From Stramenopiles sp. TOSAG23-2 (lineage: Eukaryota), in NCBI GenBank assembly GCA_900128395.1, contig LT649289.1:1-45160 (forward strand): a DNA stretch of 45,160 nucleotides, given 5' to 3'. Shown piece by piece: positions 6,406 through 40,674 of the stretch (its first letter is position 1; every line of letters begins with the position of its first letter). The notes under the pieces are model-generated. The model did no database searches. It saw only the letters and a program-made list of their open reading frames with translations, and was not told the origin of the DNA. The position numbers and the translations under genes are program-made.

Positions 6406-7484
6406 CCCGCCACCACCACAGCCTTCTAAAGCAATCGAGGGGATAACAAGTTTGAAAAGAACACGACAGTTATTTCTCTTAACACATTCTTATTGACATC
6501 GTTGTAATTCGAACGAGAAAGACATGTGTTCATTTAGTCTGTATGTATTTCATCTAACCATTCCTCGTCGAGATATAATAATGTTTCTTCGCTTTCTTTT
6601 TCCTTTTTTTATTTTGCAAGTATAAATAATAATAATAGAAGAATAATATTATTATTATATTATATTTATAGATATTATGAATGATTAGATCTATGTTGTT
6701 GCCTATTATTTATTATTGAAATTATAATAGGTATGGCTATTGATGAAATTATTATTTTATTTTTCAAATATAAAAAAAATAATAGTCTGCGGCGCGTGTA
6801 CTTGGTAAATTAGATTACCGATTACCTATATATTTATAGCTTGTGTATATGATATATAGTCAATAGTCAAGGATATATGAAAAATATTATTTAGATTTAT
6901 AGGGTCGAGATCCTGATTATGATATCCTCGCCTCTTGCCTCTTTATCTTGCCTCTTGCAAGTCGCAAGTGTAGCAAGTTGCTTCTTGATATTATAATACT
7001 GGTATTACAATATAGCTAATGCTACGAGTGCCAAAATGCTGGACAACGAAAAAGAGCTTTACGATCACAAAATCATTTCATGTTGTTACCACGTATATCG
7101 AAATATTAATGATCTCTAAGAAGGAGAAATTGTATATATATTAATATATATATATATATATATATGGTAGTACTATCCCTTGTGTATTAATTAATATATA
7201 CGTATAAAATATATATGGAATGTAGTATATATATATGTATATATTGTACTTCTCTTTTATCTACATACAATGCATATAAATCTATAAATTTTGTTACTAA
7301 TGTGTCTTAGTTATTCATATTTTTGTTCAAAATAATGAATGCACAAATCGATCACAATTATTATTATTATTTTTTAGTCTTTTTGTTTTTAGTTTTGGCA
7401 TTTTTCTATTTTAAGGTAAGGGCTGTAGCAGGGAAGAACGAAGGGAATAATCGAGTAGCATTTTTCCTATAGAATTTTAGAATC

Positions 7485-7757
7485 AAATTTATGACTATCG
7501 AAAAAATTTAGTAGGGGAAGATATTGAAAATGCCGTTGGACCAATGGATTTGTTAAAATATTGCAAAACAGATCAAGAAAGAAAAGAAATGGAGGCTGTA
7601 ATTAACATAGGAAAAGAGTTAAATGGTATGACGAGTGATGGGATACCATATATTTATCGTTGTTGGGCCGATACAGAGTTTCAAAATGCCCATGAAGTTC
7701 TTGGTAAAAAACCACAAGAATATTTTCATAAAATTATAAAAAAACCAATACTCGACG
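7485..7757 (+). pseudogene. 273-bp near-identical copy of an internal part of the CRAL-TRIO gene (12689-12961)
   Basis: Matches 12689-12961 at offset 5204 with one mismatch seen (G7535 vs A12739); lacks the gene start and 3' part. Confidence 0.9.
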
Positions 7758-7916
7758 CGACTACGATATATATTATTAGAATTTTTTATATGATATAATA
7801 TATATTTTTTATAATAAAAAAATATTAATAATAATTTTAATAAAATTAATGTGAGCATCAGAAATGTTATACACACGACGGCAGCGCATTTAGCTATTGG
7901 TGTCACCACACACACA

Positions 7917-8055
7917 CATGTTATGTGAAATCAGACATATTCTCTCTTCTTCCACGCACACATGTTATGTGAAATCAGACACATATTCTCTCTTCTTCCA
8001 CGCACCATGCGTTATGTGAAATCAGAGACATATTCTCTCTTCTTCCACGCACCAT
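7917..8055. repeat. Minisatellite, 3 imperfect copies of about 44-47 bp
   Basis: Unit CATGTTATGTGAAATCAGACATATTCTCTCTTCTTCCACGCAC starting at 7917, 7961 and ~8006, with small indels. Confidence 0.9.
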
Positions 8056-8238
8056 ATGTTTCAAAAAAATATACATTTTTTTACTTGTTATTTTGTTTTA
8101 TTAATATTTGTGTAATATTGTGGTGCATAAATGATGTATCACAATCGTTTCAATCATCTCCTATTTTTTTCCTTATTTCTTTGTTTTAGACTTTACGTTT
8201 TCTATTACTCTCGGTTTCCAAGTTTCCAATACCATTTT

Positions 8239-11200
8239 TCAATCTTCTTTGTGTTCATCATCATCAACATTAACATTAACTTTCTCTTCTTCTTCTTCCG
8301 TATTCACCACACCATTCTCCTGCCCGTTCATTGTTGTTCCAACTTCTTCTATTACTGTTGCCACACCCAAACGTTCCATCATCATTTCATTCATCATTGA
8401 TTCATGTTCATAATTACGCTTACCACCTTTTGGTCGATACGACATAACTTCATGACCATTTAACATCTTTCGTATTGTTTTAGCAGTCTTATTATTTGCT
8501 TTTATTTCAGTATCACTAGCTTCAAATACCCAATCATCTACTTTTGACATGATGAACAATAATTCTTTTTTTTCATCCAAAACCATTTGTAAACTACGAA
8601 GACAACTATCATCTTCTAATACACCTCCTGTCAAAATTATTACAACATATTCAGCTTCTGAAACAACAGATATAATTGTTTGTTGGCGAGACAGTAATGA
8701 TTTTTCTATATCTTGACCAATATGTTTTCCAGATTTTATATTGTCAACTGAATTTTCAGCATAAATAACCATAAATGAATGTGTTTTAAAACTAAGATAA
8801 ATTGGTCTAGGTACTTGAATCTCAGCACGACGTAACAATTCATACACCATAGCTTCATATTCAAATCCACGACGTCGATGTGGTATCATTTGATCATTAT
8901 CATGCATGTCAATTATCACTTTACGTATATGATTTGCAGTGTCAGGACTGCCTTGGAGTCTTGAAAATTTAGTAAATCCCATATCTTTGGTCTCAAGGTC
9001 CGTATATGTCTTTTCCAACGTTGAAACAATTTTCCCTTTTGCATCAAATCCCATTGAACTTTTCCATCCACGCTCTTCCGCATTTTTATGATTTGACTTG
9101 CGCGAACACATATTTGCTTGCCATCGATTTAAATTCCATTGCCAAAACATTGGATTTTCTTCTACAATAACAAAAATTGGTTTGTTATAGAATAATGCAG
9201 TAGCAAATTCTAATAAACAATACCATCTTGACATATAACTATTTGTTAACATGACAACAAATATATCAGAATCAATCACACCTTGTATCATACTATTCGC
9301 ATCAATTTTTTTCTGTGACATATCACGCCATACATGTACCCCGGATTGTTTCAATGTATTAAATAATGTACCAACCTCCCCAGACGATTCAGCTTGCATA
9401 TGGGATATAAACATATGGTATTTCATAGGTTGTTGACCCGGTTCGTTTTTATTGCTTGGATTCAAAAAACGGTGATCCAATATATTTTGAAGAGATGGTC
9501 TTTCATTTGGTTTACCTTTCAGACACCAACGAATTAAATTTTTTGCATCGTTTATTGTTTGTATGTTTGCCGTATCAGTTTTACTAAATATCACATCAAA
9601 ATATGTATCGGGAATAGTATGCCATGCACACAATATGGCTTTATCTGGTTTATTTGCTAAATTATCATCACTAATATCTTGTGGAAATAAATTTTGACCA
9701 GTACATAATTCGTATAATAATACACCTAATGACCAAACATCAAATGATGATTTTATTATGTCCAACTTGCCACCAATAGTAGTGAATATACAACGAGCTA
9801 ATTCAGGTGGACAATATCCGGTACTATATTTTAAGCTGTTATCCCGTTGGCTATCTTTTTCACATGCAGCATCCATATCACATAATAGCAATTGTTCTTC
9901 TTTGATGCCATCGCGTCTAACATATAAAAAATTACGTGGTTTTAAATCACAATGTACATATTTTAAATCATGATGCAATTCTTTTACTTTTGTCACAGCT
10001 TGATGAAATATATTGACAATTTTATATGGATTGTAACCAGCAATACGTTGTGTAGAAAGCTCGTGAAATAACGATACAATACCACGTTCCATGACTAATA
10101 CATATTGGTACTCAGAGTGAAAGGTTGGTTCTACGATACAAACTCGTTGTTTTCCATGATGATTTTCTAATGGAAGTTTTGTTTCAGCGTTTGGTAAATG
10201 CCATCCAAGTACTTTGACAACACATTTATCAATTGTACTATCAGAATTAATATCACTAATAAATCGTGCAGTAATCTCACGTTCAAATTCATCATAATTC
10301 TTCATTAATTTTAATGCTACTTGGTTATTGTTATCTTCAATATCTGTAGCAAAAAATACAATCGATGTGGAGGATTGATGTACAGGTTTTTCTTCGCTGG
10401 TAATTTTATAACGTTGAAATTTCGTACCGAGCGATTTGGCCCATTTAACGACTAATGGCCATTCGCAATAACGTATTATAGCATCTCGATCTCGATCAGC
10501 AGCATCATGGTATATTGGTTTAATTTTGTTATAAATGTGTTTCGTTAATATAAGATGTTTGTCTTCGTTGGATTTATTAAATTGCATTTCGCATATGTAA
10601 TGTAAATTTGTTTTACCATTTATTTCGAATTCTTCATTGTTTTGATTGATACGTTTAATCCTTGATGCTAATGTTTTATATATGTTCATATTTAAAACAT
10701 CGATGGCGTATCGTAATAAGGGCTTTTCCGGATTATTGGACATGTGATCATTGGACATATATAAAATTATACTACGATCATCTTCATTCATGCATTTCCG
10801 AAATAATTCCATATTTTCAGATTTGATTGCATTGTGTAAATTAGATAATTCTTCTACACATTTTCCACCTTTTGAACGTATAAGATCAATGATCTTTTGT
10901 ATAATTAGACTATGATTACCATAACATGCCCTGTCCAGGGGAGTGTATCCCACCGAATCCTTCTTATTAATGCTATTAAGAGACATATTAGTTAATAACA
11001 AATTAATCACCGCAGTACTCTTTTTGTTCCATTGTGCTGCCCAATGTAATGCAGTTAATCCATGTCTGCTATTTCCAATATTAAGATCAGCTTCACCTTG
11101 TTCAATCAAATATTTAACTATTTGGAAATGTTCTTTCTCTGCAGCTGCCATTAAAGGTGTACATTCGAAACTATCACTACGTTTACCTTCTTGATTCACG

Positions 11201-11556
11201 TATTCTTTCAATGTCATATTATTATTATTACCATTACTACCATTCACATCATTATTACGCCCTGTAATCAATAATTTCACATCCTCAAAACGTCCTTTTT
11301 CACATGCACATACTAATGGCGTACCTTTTGGAAATTCTGTTTTATACTTTTCTTTTAATTTCGTTACCACATTACTATCAATTACTGTTTTTGTTATTGA
11401 ATTATTACTCGCATTATTATTGTTGTTGTTATTATTATTGCTATCATTACTCCCAGTGCTGTTGTTATCACCATTGTTTACAGCATCAACTCCTTGTCGA
11501 TTTGGAGCACCGATTCCATTAGATTCATCTTTTGCATTTGACGCCGTGCACCCCAT
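8239..11556 (-). CDS. Ankyrin repeat + Ser/Thr-type protein kinase + TIR domain protein with predicted N-terminal acylation (~1105 aa)
   Basis: Likely start MGCTAS at 11556; ankyrin repeats (TPLVCAC, TPLMAAA, TALHWAA, TPLDRAC); kinase VALK, HCDLKPRN, CDMD, STGYCPPE, DVWSLG; TIR YHMFISH...VWRD...SDIFVVMLTNSYMSRWYCLLE. Confidence 0.9.
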   Translation of the reverse strand: MGCTASNAKDESNGIGAPNRQGVDAVNNGDNNSTGSNDSNNNNNNNNNASNNSITKTVIDSNVVTKLKEKYKTEFPKGTPLVCACEKGRFEDVKLLITGRNNDVNGSNGNNNNMTLKEYVNQEGKRSDSFECTPLMAAAEKEHFQIVKYLIEQGEADLNIGNSRHGLTALHWAAQWNKKSTAVINLLLTNMSLNSINKKDSVGYTPLDRACYGNHSLIIQKIIDLIRSKGGKCVEELSNLHNAIKSENMELFRKCMNEDDRSIILYMSNDHMSNNPEKPLLRYAIDVLNMNIYKTLASRIKRINQNNEEFEINGKTNLHYICEMQFNKSNEDKHLILTKHIYNKIKPIYHDAADRDRDAIIRYCEWPLVVKWAKSLGTKFQRYKITSEEKPVHQSSTSIVFFATDIEDNNNQVALKLMKNYDEFEREITARFISDINSDSTIDKCVVKVLGWHLPNAETKLPLENHHGKQRVCIVEPTFHSEYQYVLVMERGIVSLFHELSTQRIAGYNPYKIVNIFHQAVTKVKELHHDLKYVHCDLKPRNFLYVRRDGIKEEQLLLCDMDAACEKDSQRDNSLKYSTGYCPPELARCIFTTIGGKLDIIKSSFDVWSLGVLLYELCTGQNLFPQDISDDNLANKPDKAILCAWHTIPDTYFDVIFSKTDTANIQTINDAKNLIRWCLKGKPNERPSLQNILDHRFLNPSNKNEPGQQPMKYHMFISHMQAESSGEVGTLFNTLKQSGVHVWRDMSQKKIDANSMIQGVIDSDIFVVMLTNSYMSRWYCLLEFATALFYNKPIFVIVEENPMFWQWNLNRWQANMCSRKSNHKNAEERGWKSSMGFDAKGKIVSTLEKTYTDLETKDMGFTKFSRLQGSPDTANHIRKVIIDMHDNDQMIPHRRRGFEYEAMVYELLRRAEIQVPRPIYLSFKTHSFMVIYAENSVDNIKSGKHIGQDIEKSLLSRQQTIISVVSEAEYVVIILTGGVLEDDSCLRSLQMVLDEKKELLFIMSKVDDWVFEASDTEIKANNKTAKTIRKMLNGHEVMSYRPKGGKRNYEHESMMNEMMMERLGVATVIEEVGTTMNGQENGVVNTEEEEEKVNVNVDDDEHKED

Positions 11557-12426
11557 AATATTTGGTATAAAATATATGTTAAAAATTATTATTAAACTGA
11601 TTTGTAAATTTATCAAATAATATTATAATATAATCTTTAAAAAAAAAATCCAAATGTAACGTAATATAATTTCAATAGTGTTATACGATCGTATTTATTA
11701 TTATATATATCTTCCTGATAATTCGTAAAAATATATGTCCAAACAAATATGTATACCACTATAGTATTATATTATACCGGATGATAAATTACGAATAAAG
11801 ATGATATAAAATAAAATAAAACCAACCAAATGTTCGTAAACACAACCAAATGTACGTAATTTTTAATATTATTATATTAAAATTAACAAAAAAATGTTAT
11901 ATATTTTAATATCTTCGTAATGTTCTGTATATGGATAAACGTTTCAACTATAGATATATTATCTTGTTCTACAGTTATATCTCTTAAACAATAATATATA
12001 TTTATATATATTCAACACAGTGGTGATATTACAATTATCTACAACCTCCCCCCCTTGTGTAGATTGTATATCATTATTCATTCATTATATATGATGTGGA
12101 TGGGTAAAGAAGGAGGTGGAAAGTCGTCATTGAAATATTGAAATCCTCTCTTCCACACAAGTCCCTAGATCTACCTATCAAATACTGTATCTATAGTATA
12201 CTAAATCTGTACTTATCGGAAAAATAAGGATATAATAACATTTTCTACTTCGTTCTACTCTTGCCACAGAGTAACTTCGTTCTATCTACGTCTTACCTGT
12301 AAATAAAAGATATCTATTAATATATATATTTGTTGCATTTTATTAGAAAACATACAATAACAATTCTTCAACAAAATAAAATTATAAAAGAGAATACCCT
12401 TCGTCATTCGCTTATCACTACCGACA

Positions 12427-23491: not shown

Positions 23492-24637
23492 ATGAAACAA
23501 TCTACAATGAAATATTCTTTTAATATTTTTTTTTTAATATTATCGTTTTTTTTTATTTTAATTATTTTTACAAATGCAGGTGAAACAGCGAGTTTAAAGC
23601 TTTCCCCTGGATGGCCAAGTGACTTAAATAAGTTTGATGTTGGTAATTTCACTTCAACGGCTGTAGGATTTCCAAACGACTCGTTGAATGAAAAACTGGT
23701 ATTTATTGCACAGCGAAAGAAAAATGCATATAAAGATTGTATATTAGCTTTTGATCCAAATGAAGGAAAATTTATTAAATCATTTGGTAGTAGTGCTAAA
23801 ATCAGTTCCCCACACGGGACATATTTTGATAGTGCAAGAAACTCATTATGGGTTGCAGATATTGAGCGCCACACAGTTTTGCAAATGTTGGGTTCAAATG
23901 GTGATGTATTGAAAGAGTTTGGAACTAGCGGTGTAGCAGGGAAAGGCGTTCACCCAACATTGCAATTTGGCAGCGTAGCTGATGTAGCAGTGGATGACTT
24001 GGGAAATATCTACATTACAGATGGAGATGGTAAGTATATAAAAAAAGTTGATGTATTATCTATTTAAATGTACTGTATATAGATATCCCCACGACAATAA
24101 ATATCATCCTCCTCGCTAACACCATATTATCACTTCTTCATACGTGTGATACACAATCTATTCATAGGTGGTATTAATAATCGTTTTGTGAAACTGAATA
24201 AAACATATGGAGTTGAATGGGTAATGGATCATAATTTTGGCAGCCCACATTCAATTGCATGGGAACGTACTCGTAATTATATTTGGGTAGCTGACCGAAG
24301 TAACAATAGGACACAAACATTTGATGCAAAAACAGGTGAATGGATAATGGACTTTACATGTTTTCGGGATATTGATCCTAGTTCACCTGATCCAATTTCA
24401 CCATGGGGGATACGTATTGATGAAAAGAATCAAGAATTAATCATGGCTGCCAATACTATGAGCGGCACACATGGCCATTTATTACGTTTACCGTTAGATA
24501 AATGCGAAATTTTACAAGATATTAATATTTGTAGTTTATGCAAGCCTCATGAATTAAGTATTGATGAAGAAAATGGTAATGTTTTCTTAGCAAATATTGG
24601 AACTCCTAGCTCCCTAATGAAATTTGAGAGAGTTTGA
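23492..24637 (+). CDS. Secreted NHL-repeat protein, NHLRC3 / PAL-like; exons 23492-24029 and 24168-24637 (335 aa)
   Basis: Signal peptide; SPHG...LWVAD, FGTSG, QFGSVADVAVD...IYITDGD|GGINNRFVKL (matches the NHLRC3-type DGDGGxNNR motif), SPHSI...WVADRSNNR, KPHEL. Confidence 0.88.
24030..24167 (+). other. Spliceosomal intron (138 nt)
   Basis: GTAAGT donor, GCTAAC branch, CATAG acceptor; splicing restores DGDGG. Confidence 0.9.
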
Positions 24638-24899
24638 GAGAGTGTAAAAAAACAAGTGTATAGTCTACACGTATTACACACGTATTACACGCACGCATTA
24701 AGCATTAATTAAAATGTTTTTTTTTTATTTTTAATATTTTTATCTCTAGAGTGGAATTTTCAAAAGATTAAACCGTCCACAAAACTACAAAAAAACGTTT
24801 TGTGGGTGTGTCGGTATACGTGTCCTTTAATATATAAAAAGATAATTTAAATCATATTTCAAAATCAGTAATTTTAAATATCACACGTTCTATATTTAT

Positions 24900-26264
24900 T
24901 TAATATTCTTCCATATCTTCATCTTCACCTTCACCTTCTGCGGTTTCTACAGCTACTTCATGGTAATCTTTTTCCAAAGCTGCTAAATCTTCACGAGCCT
25001 CGGAGAATTCACCTTCTTCCATACCTTCACCAACATACCAATGTACAAATGCCCGTTTGGAGTACATCAAATCGAACTTATGGTCAAGACGTCCAGAAAT
25101 TTCACCAATAGCAGTTGTGTTGGAAATCATCAAAAGTGCACGTTGTACTTTTGCTAAATCACCACCTGGTACAACGGTTGGAGGCTGATTATTAATGGAA
25201 ACTTTGAATGCTGTTGGGCACCAGTCTACGAATTGGATGGTACGTTTGGATTTTACAGCAGCAATGGAACTGTTAACATCTTTTGGTACAACATCACCAC
25301 GGTACATCAAAACGCATGCCATGTATTTACCATGACGTGGGTCGCATTTAACCATCATTGTTGATGGTTCGAATACAGCACTAGTAATTTCACTCACGGA
25401 CAATTGTTCATGGTACGCTTTCTCTGCAGCGATGATTGGAGCATATGAACACAATGGGAAACTAATACGTGGGTATGGTACCAAGTTAGTTTGGAAAGCA
25501 GTCATATCAACATTAATTTGACCGTCGAAACGCAACGAAGCGGTGATACTTGAGATAATTTGGGAAACTAAACGATTCAAGTTGGTGTATGTTGGACGCT
25601 CGATATCTAATGCACGACGACAGATGTCATACAAAGCTTCATTATCAACCATGAAAGCAACATCGGAGTGTTCAAGCATACTATGGGATGTCAATACAGC
25701 ATTGTATGGTTCTACAACAGCTGTGGAGCATTGTGGGGATGGGTATACACTGAACAAAATTTTTGCTTTACGGCCATAATCTACAGATAAACGTTCCAAT
25801 AATAAGGAAGCGAAACCACCACCTGTACCACCACCGAAAGCATGGAAAACCATAAATCCCTGTAAACCGGTACATTGATCTGCGCCTTTACGTAATCTGT
25901 CTAATACAAGATCAACAACTTCTTTACCTACGGTGTAATGACCACGAGCATAGTTATTTGCTGCATCTTCTTTACCTGAGATCAATTGTTCTGGATGGAA
26001 AAGTGATCTGTATGTACCGGAGCGAACTTCATCGATAACAGTTGGTTCCAAATCAAGGAATACACAACGTGGTACATATTTACCTGCACCAGTTTCAGTG
26101 AAGAAAGTACCAAAACTATCATCGTCACTGTAGTTATCATCACCTCCAGATGATGGTTTTTGACCATTTGGCTGGATACCGTGTTCTAGACAGAAAAGTT
26201 CCCAACAAGCATTACCTAATTGACAACCAGCTTGACCTAAGTGGATTAAGATACATTCACGCAT
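24900..26264 (-). CDS. TUBA: Divergent alpha-tubulin (454 aa)
   Basis: MREC start, [60 protein letters not shown]-terminal EEY. Confidence 0.97.
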
Positions 26265-27515
26265 ATTTATATAGTTTTGTTTTTGTTTTGTGTTTTATTA
26301 ATTGTTATGGATTATTCACACGATTTTTTTTTCGTTTTTTTTTTTTTTTCGTTTCTTTATATATTTGTAAAGATACGTGGCAAAGGGAATCTGTGCGCAT
26401 CTGCGCATATATATATATTCTATGGGTTTGATGTGTCTTTCCCCATTGAATTTATGAGTATCCTGTCATAATTATTGGTGTATAACATTAAATTTAATAT
26501 CGTAATAATATAAAAAGTCTGTAAGTTAAATTACTAATATTTTGACAGGATACTCTAGACTTTCGATAGAAAACTTGCAAAGTCACTTGCATGTCCAACT
26601 TTACAACTTTACAAGAATATGCAGTACACAGCATAGTAAACGTACTCAAAATTTTTAAAATCGTATTTTTTTTTTTGAAATTTAACACTGTTTACTATTG
26701 GATTTAGAAACTTGACCGTTCAACTGAAAATTGTAGATAGTAATGCTATTTATATGGTAATTTTATTCGGTTTAGGCAGAACAACAAAAAACACTCAGTC
26801 AAAAAGTCTGCAACTTTACAATAGAAATAGCATGCAAAAATTCTGGCAGAAACTAAAACAAAAGCAATTTTCAATTTTGATGTTGATGGAAATTAAAAAG
26901 AAGAGCATAAAAAAAATTGCTGATTAAATTTAACGATTATATTTCGTCCCTATCATATCCCCTTTACACTACTACAGCATATACCCGTGGTGTGTATCCG
27001 AATCTTTCACATCTGTAGTGGTACATAGCATACTATGCAATACATAGTCATATTTCATGCTATTTTAAATTTTCAAAAGGCTGTAGTATTGCAATAATTA
27101 CAAGGTTCGCCAATGATTTTGCTTCCCAGTAGCGTTTCTTTTTATGATAGTAGGTTTAGTACGTCAATAGCTACTAATACTACTCTCAATGCTATGTCTA
27201 TGGTAGAACGAATTCACCAAAATACAAAAGAAATTTCAATTCAGGAAAAAAATGCGGATATTTTTCTTCCAAATTCGTACTTGGTATAGTCTAATTATTA
27301 GAATAAAAATAATAATTTTTTTATTTTTTTTGAATAATAGCAGCAATATATAACATTTTTATGGCTCTTTATACACACACATTTACATTATTTATATATC
27401 TTTACGACAAATGCAGATGTACAAGATGTAAGAAGATATACAATATTGATCTGTCAAAAGGAATAATGAGAATGACACATGATTTGCATATATTGTAGAC
27501 ATATATGTAATATAT

Positions 27516-39429: not shown

Positions 39430-40212
39430 TTACTGAGGTGGTGGAAGAGGTGGTGGTGGGCGCATGCCACCTGGCGGCGGTGGTGGTCCCCCCATACCTG
39501 GCATTGGTGGAGGTGGCCTTGGTGCACCTCCTCTAGCTCCCATACCTGGCATTGGTGGAGGTGGCCTTGGTGCACCTCCTCTAGCTCCTTGAATTCCTGC
39601 TAATAAACCAGCTCGTGGTGGCCTTCCCATTCCTGGTAATGGTGGTGGCATTCGTGCTGGTCCCCTACCTGGCATTGGTGGCGGTAATCCGAATCCTCCT
39701 CTTGGTGTTGCTGATGGCATCATGGACATGCCACTAGATACAGGTGGCACGGTACCTACTCCACCAGTTGCTATTGAAGATAAATTGGCCATAAAACTAT
39801 CTCTTGTACCACATTGTTTTATCATAGCAGTTGCTTCTGCATCTGTTAAATCTTCACCTAATAATTTCATAACTTCCTTTAAACGATTTACCTCTAATTT
39901 TCCAGTGCCATCTTTATCTATTAAATCAAACGCGTCGCCAAACGCACCAAGCCATGTATGTTTTTTCGCATGAAAATTTAAGGCAAAATTTGTAAAGTTT
40001 ATTTGGTTTGCTTTTGGGTCACCAGTAAATTCTGTTACCATAGTCTTGACGTCTTCATCTTGAAAAGTTTCTCCAAACTGAGCATAAAATGCTTTCAACG
40101 TTTCTCCACTAATGACACCTGTATTATTCTTATCAAACATATGAAATGCATTGCGGTATTCATTGATATCTTGCTCCGTCAATCCCGCACTTATCAATTT
40201 TTGCATATTCAT
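39430..40212 (-). CDS. Calmodulin/centrin-like EF-hand protein with Pro/Gly-rich C-terminal tail
   Basis: LTEQDINEYRNAFHMFDKNNTGVIS, DAFDLIDKDGTGKLE...LGEDLTDAE; tail of PPPPMPG repeats including a 48-bp tandem repeat (39491-39588). Confidence 0.85.
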   Translation of the reverse strand: MNMQKLISAGLTEQDINEYRNAFHMFDKNNTGVISGETLKAFYAQFGETFQDEDVKTMVTEFTGDPKANQINFTNFALNFHAKKHTWLGAFGDAFDLIDKDGTGKLEVNRLKEVMKLLGEDLTDAEATAMIKQCGTRDSFMANLSSIATGGVGTVPPVSSGMSMMPSATPRGGFGLPPPMPGRGPARMPPPLPGMGRPPRAGLLAGIQGARGGAPRPPPPMPGMGARGGAPRPPPPMPGMGGPPPPPGGMRPPPPLPPPQ

Positions 40213-40674
40213 ATTTTATATTATATATATATATATATATATTACTAAATCTCACTCTAAAATGTTCCTCCCAATAAAAAAACTAAAATTATTAAAAATA
40301 AACAATGTGTATATTAAAATGCTTTCTACCAATATATTTCTTCCAATTTAATAAAATAATCCTTCGTCTATATTAATATATCTAAATAGAAATAAGGCAA
40401 CAGATAGAAAGATGGAAAAGAAGTTAAATTGAAAATCAACACATAATCTACATAAACAACTCGAATTGTATGTTTCTTTATTTATTTTCTATTTTTATTA
40501 AAAAATTGGAATTTTTACTTAACTGATTATTTTTAGTATAATATACTAACAAGTATATTTAGCTATATATCCAGCTTTATACATCATCACATCATCACCG
40601 TTTTAGTTGATTACCAGATTATATGCACAAAGGCACCTTACACATCACACACACAACTCATACATCACCACATT

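Follow-up and report, generated by a model that had tools for sequence, protein, structure and literature searches.

A transcribed and constrained alpha-tubulin with alanine in place of catalytic Glu254 on a contig from Stramenopiles sp. TOSAG23-2

Can a cell keep and use an alpha-tubulin that lacks the glutamate on which microtubule GTP hydrolysis is held to depend? The question is raised by one gene in the 45,160-nucleotide contig LT649289.1 from Stramenopiles sp. TOSAG23-2 (the whole stretch analysed is called the window here), in which alanine occupies the position of alpha-tubulin Glu254. According to PMC10319017, this glutamate supplies the missing part of the GTPase site in the beta-tubulin beneath it and takes a proton from the lytic water; PMC7018511 treats it as catalytic, conserved in evolution and necessary for dynamic instability. 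An initial annotation, made from the letters of the window, had described the gene as a natural alpha-tubulin with a predicted GTPase-dead lattice. The features on which the argument rests are the following.

24900..26264, minus strand: alpha-tubulin coding sequence without introns, 454 codons and a stop, protein starting MREC and ending EEY (open reading frame and translation)
25497..25499, minus strand: codon 256, GCT, alanine at the site of catalytic Glu254 (translation and alignment)
25506..25508, minus strand: codon 253, GAT, aspartate, canonical Asp251, the second catalytic-site residue, kept (translation and alignment; invariant in alignment A1)
25515..25517, minus strand: codon 250, ATT, isoleucine at canonical Leu248 in the T7 loop (group comparison)
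26265..26318, minus strand: 5' leader of about 54 nucleotides (nt), conserved with two related loci, L001 and L002; the alignment between loci ends there (blastn)
about 24883..26346, minus strand: contig coverage in polyA/oligo-dT RNA libraries; the flanks are covered by DNA runs alone

The coding sequence at 24900..26264 reads through without interruption from MREC to MEEY over 454 residues. The plus-strand bases at 25497-25499 are agc, giving GCT on the coding strand at residue 256, which pairs with residue 254 of human TUBA1A/1B when the window protein is aligned to PDB sequences with phmmer; the offset of +2 comes from a 2-residue insertion in the loop at about residues 40-47. All of the best 60 PDB matches shown are named alpha-tubulin (E ~1e-257, best 3.8e-257, residues 1-453), and the top-scoring sequence is engineered human E254A tubulin, 7sj9. 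Identity to human alpha-tubulin is about 80%, and the alignment is ungapped around site 254. GCT lies two changes away from GAA or GAG. Translation, codon inspection and alignment to canonical alpha-tubulins thus bear out what the initial annotation had read from the letters, namely alanine at the Glu254 site after a 2-residue insertion, a codon two bases from either Glu codon, and a frame otherwise intact to EEY.

Pfam identifies Tubulin (PF00091, 1.5e-59) and Tubulin_C (PF03953, 8.7e-46), both above curated cut-offs, and the beta-like neighboring open reading frames (ORFs) at some metagenome loci are just ~41% identical; over its full length the protein is closer to alpha than to the other classes of tubulin. 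An MREC or MREI N-terminus and an acidic C-terminal tail ending in tyrosine are typical of alpha-tubulin; the window protein has the MREC start, the acidic tail ending in Tyr and a normal tail length. Arg2, Asp251 and Lys352 are all retained, so that the GTPase-activating pair is half kept, with Asp251 present (D253) and Glu254 replaced by Ala (A256). Loss of Glu254 concerns a functional hallmark and not descent, and the protein is therefore still an alpha-tubulin, by homology as read from its sequence, in which one functional hallmark has failed.

The alanine codon is found beyond the assembled window. Of 24 public runs listed, 20 contain half or more of the words sampled from 24700-26500; these 20 come from 12 studies, all are marine, and RNA is on record for eight of them. 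Contigs of four runs were mapped on this interval at ≥90% likeness, a threshold below which a paralog about 78% identical in DNA falls. One contig from X1, a small organism-labelled DNA run, spans 25282-25532, and one from X14, a polyA metatranscriptome of a different study, spans 25470-25665; both have 0 differences to the window. X1 may be the window's own source and so gives by itself no independent support for the codon. X4, a marine metagenome DNA run, has no depth at 25310-25492 and from 25503 carries a second form alone, and it speaks neither for nor against the codon. In two RNA libraries depth is limited to ~24883-26346, with zero depth for X14 in bins 24700-24882 and 26286-26500; the DNA of X1 extends over the flanks and covers 30 of 30 bins. 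Among the 40 variant places listed (75 further places are unlisted), 39 fall at 24900+3k, the third codon positions on the minus strand. At window positions 25018 and 25718, contigs of X1 leave the alpha-tubulin at conserved stretches and continue into a beta-tubulin-like translation; such contigs probably arose where the assembly graph joined an alpha- to a beta-tubulin gene within that sample.

Comparison with near relatives gives the same picture of constraint. A metagenome scan of 80 loci included two such relatives, L001, with a protein 99.3% and a coding sequence 90.8% identical to the window gene, and L002, with a protein 98.6% identical over 443 residues. Between the window and L001 there are 3 amino acid differences in 454, with a synonymous divergence (dS) of 0.52 and a ratio of nonsynonymous to synonymous divergence (dN/dS) of 0.0127 by the Nei-Gojobori method; the window and L002 differ at 6 of 443 residues (dS 0.64, dN/dS 0.0217), and L001 and L002 have a dS of 0.88 and a dN/dS of 0.0137. 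The alanine codon is GCT in the window, GCT in L001 and GCG in L002, which indicates that alanine has been maintained through synonymous change. The gene is transcribed, strongly constrained and under purifying selection. A sequencing or assembly error at this codon, or a decaying pseudogene, might be suspected, and X1, the best DNA run, may be the sample from which the window was assembled. Against both stand the identical letters in a polyA-RNA contig of another study, alanine encoded by GCT, GCT and GCG at three loci, dozens of Ala/Ser members in protein clusters, the intact frame and a dN/dS of 0.013-0.022. Both are excluded for practical purposes, and we give them a negligible probability. 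The initial annotation had proposed to check the codon, transcription and dN/dS, and each check came out in favor of a genuine gene: X1 DNA and independent X14 polyA-RNA contigs agree over GCT, the gene is present in polyA-RNA contigs, and dN/dS is low.

The Ala254 gene is also not single. The 16,989-nt contig L001 aligns at 6727-8143 to window positions 26318-24899, that is, over the gene plus a leader of ~54 nt alone (blastn), and no shared flanking sequence between the window and L001 was found by tblastx beyond them. The neighboring genes differ; in L001 they encode an ion-channel-like protein that has ankyrin repeats, an IQ-rich protein, and two further ORFs, one hydrolase-like and one large and helicase-like. 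A second form, ~91% identical, in DNA run X1 and RNA run X14 matches L001 at 23 of 23 listed letters, which together with the different flanks places two Ala254 genes at separate loci in one organism-labelled run. Both forms occur in polyA RNA. The terminal segments L001:1-1854 and L001:15136-16989 encode one 618-residue IQ-rich ORF on opposite strands, a terminal inverted duplication that may represent amplification or an assembly chimera rather than genuine genome structure. All three Ala254 genes carry the motif AATCCATAAYAATTA ~30-50 nt upstream of the ATG, in leaders located at 26265-26318 in the window, L001:6727-6777 and L002:2510-2558; an RNA contig extends to 26320. At a similar distance upstream, the canonical alpha-tubulin gene of contig L054, discussed below, has CCATAACA alone. 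The motif may be a shared promoter or 5' untranslated region element.

Little else in the protein sets it apart. When 22 full-length members of the Ala/Ser group were compared with 11 Glu sisters and 38 Glu outgroups, two positions of 454 were group-specific, residues 250 and 256. Residue 250 (canonical 248) is Ile in 22 of 22 group members, and every sister and outgroup (11 of 11 and 38 of 38) has Leu there; residue 256 (canonical 254) is Ala in 20 group members and Ser in two. A further group placed apart on the tree, P0136, also pairs Ile248 with Ala254, and separate Ser254 groups retain Leu248. Acidic residues were compared using P0273 and P0279 as references, P0128 being unsuitable owing to large alignment gaps. 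Relative to the canonical L054 protein, acids were gained only at residues 42, 43 and 47, in loop H1-S2, and lost at canonical positions 33, 39, 254 and 433; the comparison revealed no gained acid in T7, H8 or the Lys352 strand. The initial annotation had noted that a substitute acid at the catalytic site would undo its prediction, and by sequence comparison none has been gained near the site.

Two other parts of the protein differ from the human sequence. The Lys40 stretch of canonical alpha-tubulin, GQMPSDKTIGGGDDS, is replaced in the PDB alignment, and the H1-S2 loop at 26124-26162 (residues 35-47) is divergent and without Lys40, with Lys at residue 36 instead. The canonical DKTIGGGDD stretch is also missing from Hondaea-like and Cafeteria-like relatives. 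At 25819-25839 (residues 143-149) the nucleotide motif is GGGTGGG, compared with GGGTGSG in human, and relatives vary among Ser, Ala and Gly there.

Relatives that share Ala254, which the initial annotation had suggested looking for among protists, and others with Ser254 were recovered by motif scan, in protein clusters and at metagenome loci. The protein set used for the motif scan came partly from a search seeded on the Ala254 region and is hence variant-enriched, so the Ala and Ser counts show recurrence and not frequency. Among 194 retrieved proteins, 180 matched the pattern and 14 lay outside it, and the 199 matches comprised 186 Glu, 10 Ala and 3 Ser. Cluster states were tallied among listed members covering the site, as follows.

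P0061 (contains the window protein), 174 members: Ala 7, Ser 5, Glu 1 of 13 listed
P0089, 111 members: Ala 11 of 11 listed
P0133, 24 members: Ala 9, Ser 1 of 10 listed
P0112, 3 members: Ala 3 of 3 listed
P0136, 10 members: Ala 6 of 6 listed
P0159, 2 members: Ser 2 of 2 listed
P0088 (sister), 3 members: Glu 3 of 3 listed
P0104 (sister), 9 members: Glu 9 of 9 listed
P0143 (includes Cafeteria roenbergensis), 182 members: Glu 15 of 15 listed

The lone Glu in the cluster of the window protein is a 260-residue fragment with a different local context. In P0096, P0112 and P0144 a canonical-looking N-terminal part is joined to Ala254, and these may be assembly chimeras. Exact matches to two Ala254 proteins occur on 15 and 36 contigs, compared with 1-6 per closest Glu254 relative. 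At the 80 metagenome loci, residue 254 is Glu in 75, Ala in two (L001 and L002) and Ser in three, encoded by TCT in L003, TCC in L004 and TCA in L017. The cluster of L017 contains transcripts of the acantharian Astrolonche serrata, with Ser in 12 of 12 listed members covering the site, and the L003 cluster is mixed: of 15 members listed, 4 have Ser and 11 have Glu, forms that are at least 90% identical. The genes of this Ser254 group (L003:72-1430, L004:41-1396 and L017:107-1462) also have Phe for Tyr262 and, where the canonical SAEKAYHEQ stretch has Lys (about position 280), Ile or Val; another canonical stretch is replaced by IRFV(D/E)WAPGGF.

A tree of 63 rows, with the T7-H8 columns left out, places the non-Glu254 states in at least four separate parts: the L003/L004/L017 group (Ser); the P0136 group within a Cafeteria-like clade (Ala, support 100); the P0159 group within a Hondaea-like clade (Ser); and the 25-row clade of the window protein, in which three Ala/Ser and two Glu subclades form a polytomy. 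Among marine protist alpha-tubulins, no fewer than four distinct groups have exchanged Glu254 for another residue, and the minimum number of state changes at 254 on this tree is seven. The 25-row clade joins, without resolved order, a 21-row clade (support 92) of Hondaea-like sequences, the group whose cluster includes Cafeteria roenbergensis, and Platysulcus tardus. Within the 25-row clade, a single clade for the 17 Ala/Ser rows was not rejected by the approximately unbiased (AU) test (p 0.302), a result that is no proof of such a clade given that the group was named after inspection of the tree, and quartet site patterns among representatives conflict, 8/8/5. P0136 and P0234 carry Ala254 with Ile248 and are nested (support 100) in the clade whose Glu254 cluster includes Cafeteria roenbergensis, apparently an independent repeat of both changes.

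The source organism is read as an uncultured, AT-rich, marine heterotrophic stramenopile. The window has a GC content of 28-40% in 2-kb steps and a eukaryotic style, with long ORFs containing poly-Asn tracts, few introns and no tRNA genes. Its prolidase has stramenopiles as seven of the first eight organism-named matches (Chrysoparadoxa, Ectocarpus, Scytosiphon, Phaeothamnion, Nannochloropsis, Hondaea and a bicosoecid, all of which we take to be stramenopiles), the exception being a partial nematode entry. Close relatives of the alpha-tubulin protein are all environmental, and the nearest organism-named one is that of Hondaea fermentalgiana, at 83% identity.

What such a protein would do is suggested by engineered tubulins. 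Human E254A hydrolyzes no GTP, nucleates strongly and forms stable microtubules, and E254D slows hydrolysis (PMC7018511); E254A and E254N lattices are expanded and without catastrophes (PMC8764682), and E254Q behaves like other hydrolysis-deficient E254 mutants (PMC11893814). The equivalent substitution is lethal in yeast through loss of dynamics (PMC7018511). A quantum mechanics/molecular mechanics study identifies Arg2, Asp251 and Lys352 as the remaining alpha-tubulin residues in the catalytic site (PMC10319017). The description of engineered E254A as hydrolysis-deficient and hyperstable in the initial annotation agrees with PMC7018511 and PMC8764682.

By analogy with these mutants, the window gene most likely encodes a conserved alpha-tubulin that would be unable to trigger GTP hydrolysis and would make an intrinsically stable lattice. 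With ~80% human identity and a dN/dS of 0.013-0.022, it is by sequence an otherwise assembly-competent alpha-tubulin with a non-acidic residue 254. Glu254 has been permanently replaced by Ala together with L248I, and whatever else is required for folding, pairing with beta-tubulin and entry into microtubules is preserved, Arg2, Asp251 and Lys352 included. When an Ala254 alpha subunit sits atop a beta subunit, the exchangeable GTP would be hydrolyzed very slowly or not at all, and a lattice built from such dimers would stay GTP-like, stable and easily nucleated. Disassembly would proceed via a co-resident Glu254 alpha-tubulin or via depolymerizing or severing enzymes. In a very small flagellate, most tubulin is in the axoneme and flagellar roots, which makes an abundant stable-lattice tubulin plausible. 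If a canonical Glu254 type coexists, with the L054 gene as its candidate, the Ala254 genes would supply this tiny flagellate with an abundant tubulin for stable structures. The initial annotation had gone on to propose a specialized isotype for non-dynamic structures or a lattice dopant. A live gene has indeed lost the catalytic residue, but the view of it as a minor specialized isotype or dopant is if anything disfavored, since the second Ala254 locus and the proteins on 15 and 36 contigs lean away from a minor role.

The preferred reading, a hydrolysis-deficient isotype beside a canonical Glu254 alpha-tubulin, requires a partner gene. The 9,045-nt contig L054, whose name shares an assembly prefix with L001, encodes at 6937-8295 a canonical alpha-tubulin with Glu254 and Lys40, among poly-Asn-rich genes on an AT-rich contig. 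Tetranucleotide profiles of its flanks correlate with the two window halves at Pearson r of 0.966 and 0.961 and with L001 at 0.976, compared with 0.980 between the window halves and at most 0.915 between 13 control loci (9 at 24-40% GC) and the window, L001 or L054. The L054 gene is therefore a candidate co-resident canonical paralog. The metagenome scan otherwise yielded mostly canonical alpha-tubulins 73-80% identical to the window protein, and no DNA of the 88%-identical Glu254 sisters was among its loci. Those nearest Glu254 relatives are rare, with 1-6 contigs per exact protein and clusters of 3 and 9 members (P0088 and P0104), and they may be other species or weakly expressed paralogs. 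We infer that hydrolysis is lost and the lattices are stable, and that a canonical Glu254 paralog probably shares the cell; for the reading as a whole we put the chances at about even.

Several observations weigh against it. Contig L054 has neither flanking sequence nor flanking genes in common with the window or L001; composition and assembly prefix are its only ties to the window organism, and its exact protein occurs on 2 contigs, versus 15 and 36 for the Ala254 proteins. The nearest Glu254 groups, P0088 and P0104, may be other species and not paralogs, and they lie in a polytomy with the Ala/Ser groups, with quartets of 8/8/5. Loss of hydrolysis is transferred from human and yeast mutants and might not apply in this background. 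The RNA evidence consists of assembled contigs and so establishes presence, not expression level. Finally, the window protein is without Lys40, which is usually acetylated in microtubules that are long-lived or axonemal; this absence makes it a poor fit to a simple axoneme isotype.

If the partner is doubted, the Ala254/Ser254 protein becomes the main or only alpha-tubulin of the lineage, with lattices that would be truly hydrolysis-poor, nearly all microtubules GTP-locked, and disassembly left to kinesin-13/8-type depolymerases and severing ATPases. Two separate Ala254 loci with both forms in polyA RNA speak for this, as do the abundance of Ala254 proteins (15 and 36 contigs and a 174-member cluster, with nearest Glu254 clusters of 3 and 9), the persistence of the Ala254 state across a dS of 0.5-0.9, and the fact that nothing stronger than composition ties a Glu254 alpha-tubulin to the organism. 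Contig and member counts, however, depend on expression and assembly and are not a gene census, and a compositionally matching contig, L054, does carry a canonical gene. E254A is lethal in yeast through lost dynamics (PMC7018511), and in the L003 cluster Ser254 (4) and Glu254 (11) forms at least 90% identical occur side by side, which shows that the types commonly mix. We consider a main or sole Ala254 tubulin unlikely, though the next most probable reading. It would mean that the principal or only alpha-tubulin of an abundant marine heterotrophic flagellate lineage is without Glu254, with dimers either hydrolysis-dead or working via an undescribed mechanism, a state with at least four origins in the marine Stramenopiles-Alveolata-Rhizaria (SAR) group; we regard that, too, as improbable but worth keeping in view.

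A different challenge concerns the chemistry itself. GTP hydrolysis and dynamic instability might be retained despite Ala254, with another group doing the work of Glu254. Asp251 might do so through a chain of waters, or compensation might come from an altered partner beta-tubulin or from an accessory protein; L248I would reshape the T7 loop to make this possible. L248I accompanies Ala254 in 22 of 22 group members and recurs in the separate P0136 group, a hint of coupled structural adjustment, and Asp251, Arg2 and Lys352 are all retained under very strong purifying selection over the whole protein. Yet no new acidic residue lies near the site, and the Ser254 forms retain Leu248, so Ile248 is not required for loss of the glutamate. 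In human tubulin, moreover, E254A, E254N and E254Q abolish hydrolysis and E254D slows it (PMC7018511, PMC8764682, PMC11893814). Compensation of this kind is slightly less probable again than a lineage that relies on the Ala254 protein, and the reading we prefer remains a hydrolysis-deficient isotype alongside a canonical alpha-tubulin.

The closest functional model is man-made. Engineered human E254A (7sj9; also E254N, E254Q and E254D) alters the same residue at the same position in an otherwise canonical alpha-tubulin; it does not hydrolyze GTP, nucleates strongly, and forms stable microtubules whose lattice is expanded. The human mutants are laboratory-made, whereas the window gene is natural, kept by selection and ~80% identical to human; compared with human E254A, its protein adds L248I, a divergent H1-S2 loop without Lys40, and GGGTGGG for GGGTGSG. 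In yeast the equivalent substitution, tub1-E255A (Anders and Botstein 2001, cited in PMC7018511), is reported lethal, in contrast to Ala254 being fixed in wild lineages here.

Natural precedent exists, and the Ala254 case differs from both examples considered here. Coccidian alpha3-tubulin (Toxoplasma, Hammondia, Neospora, Besnoitia and Cystoisospora) is without GTPase-activating residues and has been proposed to be a polymer stabilizer (PMC10056924). It has Asp251 changed to Thr and Glu254 to Gln or His, an MPREI N-terminus, a very long C-terminal tail and a canonical alpha1 alongside, whereas the window protein keeps Asp251, MREC and a normal EEY tail, and has two T7/H8 residues changed; the marks described for alpha3 in PMC10056924 (Asp251 loss, MPREI and long tail) are absent from it. 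Retarian alpha2-tubulin (Foraminifera and Radiolaria) is a lineage-specific paralog with a highly variable T7 loop and H8 (bioRxiv 10.1101/064030). It is described as divergent over all contact surfaces and as a clade confined to Retaria, whereas the window protein is highly conserved bar two residues and does not share the variable T7, H8, M-loop and lateral contacts given for alpha2 in that source. On our trees, which contain no named alpha2 sequence, the window protein groups with Hondaea, Cafeteria and Platysulcus sequences, apart from the Astrolonche-associated Ser254 group. The Ala254 gene is thus distinct from its precedents in being otherwise canonical, duplicated, represented by transcripts in RNA libraries and changed at just two residues, and it is one instance of the Glu254 losses that recur in marine protists. 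A literature search, in which subscription journals and supplements were incompletely covered, found no paper on natural Ala254 or Ser254 alpha-tubulins in stramenopiles or radiolarians, and E254 is not mentioned in PMC9294176 or bioRxiv 2024.01.08.573270.

Three other genes in the window were recorded. The 3' end of the tubulin gene is adjoined by an NHL-repeat protein at 23492-24637 on the plus strand, over two ORFs (23492-24067 and 24146-24637) that look like one gene with a short intron. A large minus-strand ORF at 8239-11622 carries, by Pfam, a protein kinase domain and a TIR domain besides ankyrin repeats, an architecture unusual for a protist. Another minus-strand ORF, at 39430-40215, encodes an EF-hand protein whose long tail is rich in Pro, Gly and Met and bears PPPPMPGMG repeats.

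Mutants at site 254 are the standard tool of the field for microtubules resembling the GTP cap, and nature has fixed the same change here. For structural work and studies of dynamics, the window gene thereby provides a GTP-state tubulin that occurs naturally and has been tuned by selection, with the residue pair 248 and 254 as a concrete target for swaps. It also offers a direct test of how a cell can live with, or benefit from, a hydrolysis-poor lattice. If a canonical paralog is absent, the organism would be a eukaryote in which microtubule turnover does not rest on tubulin's own GTPase.

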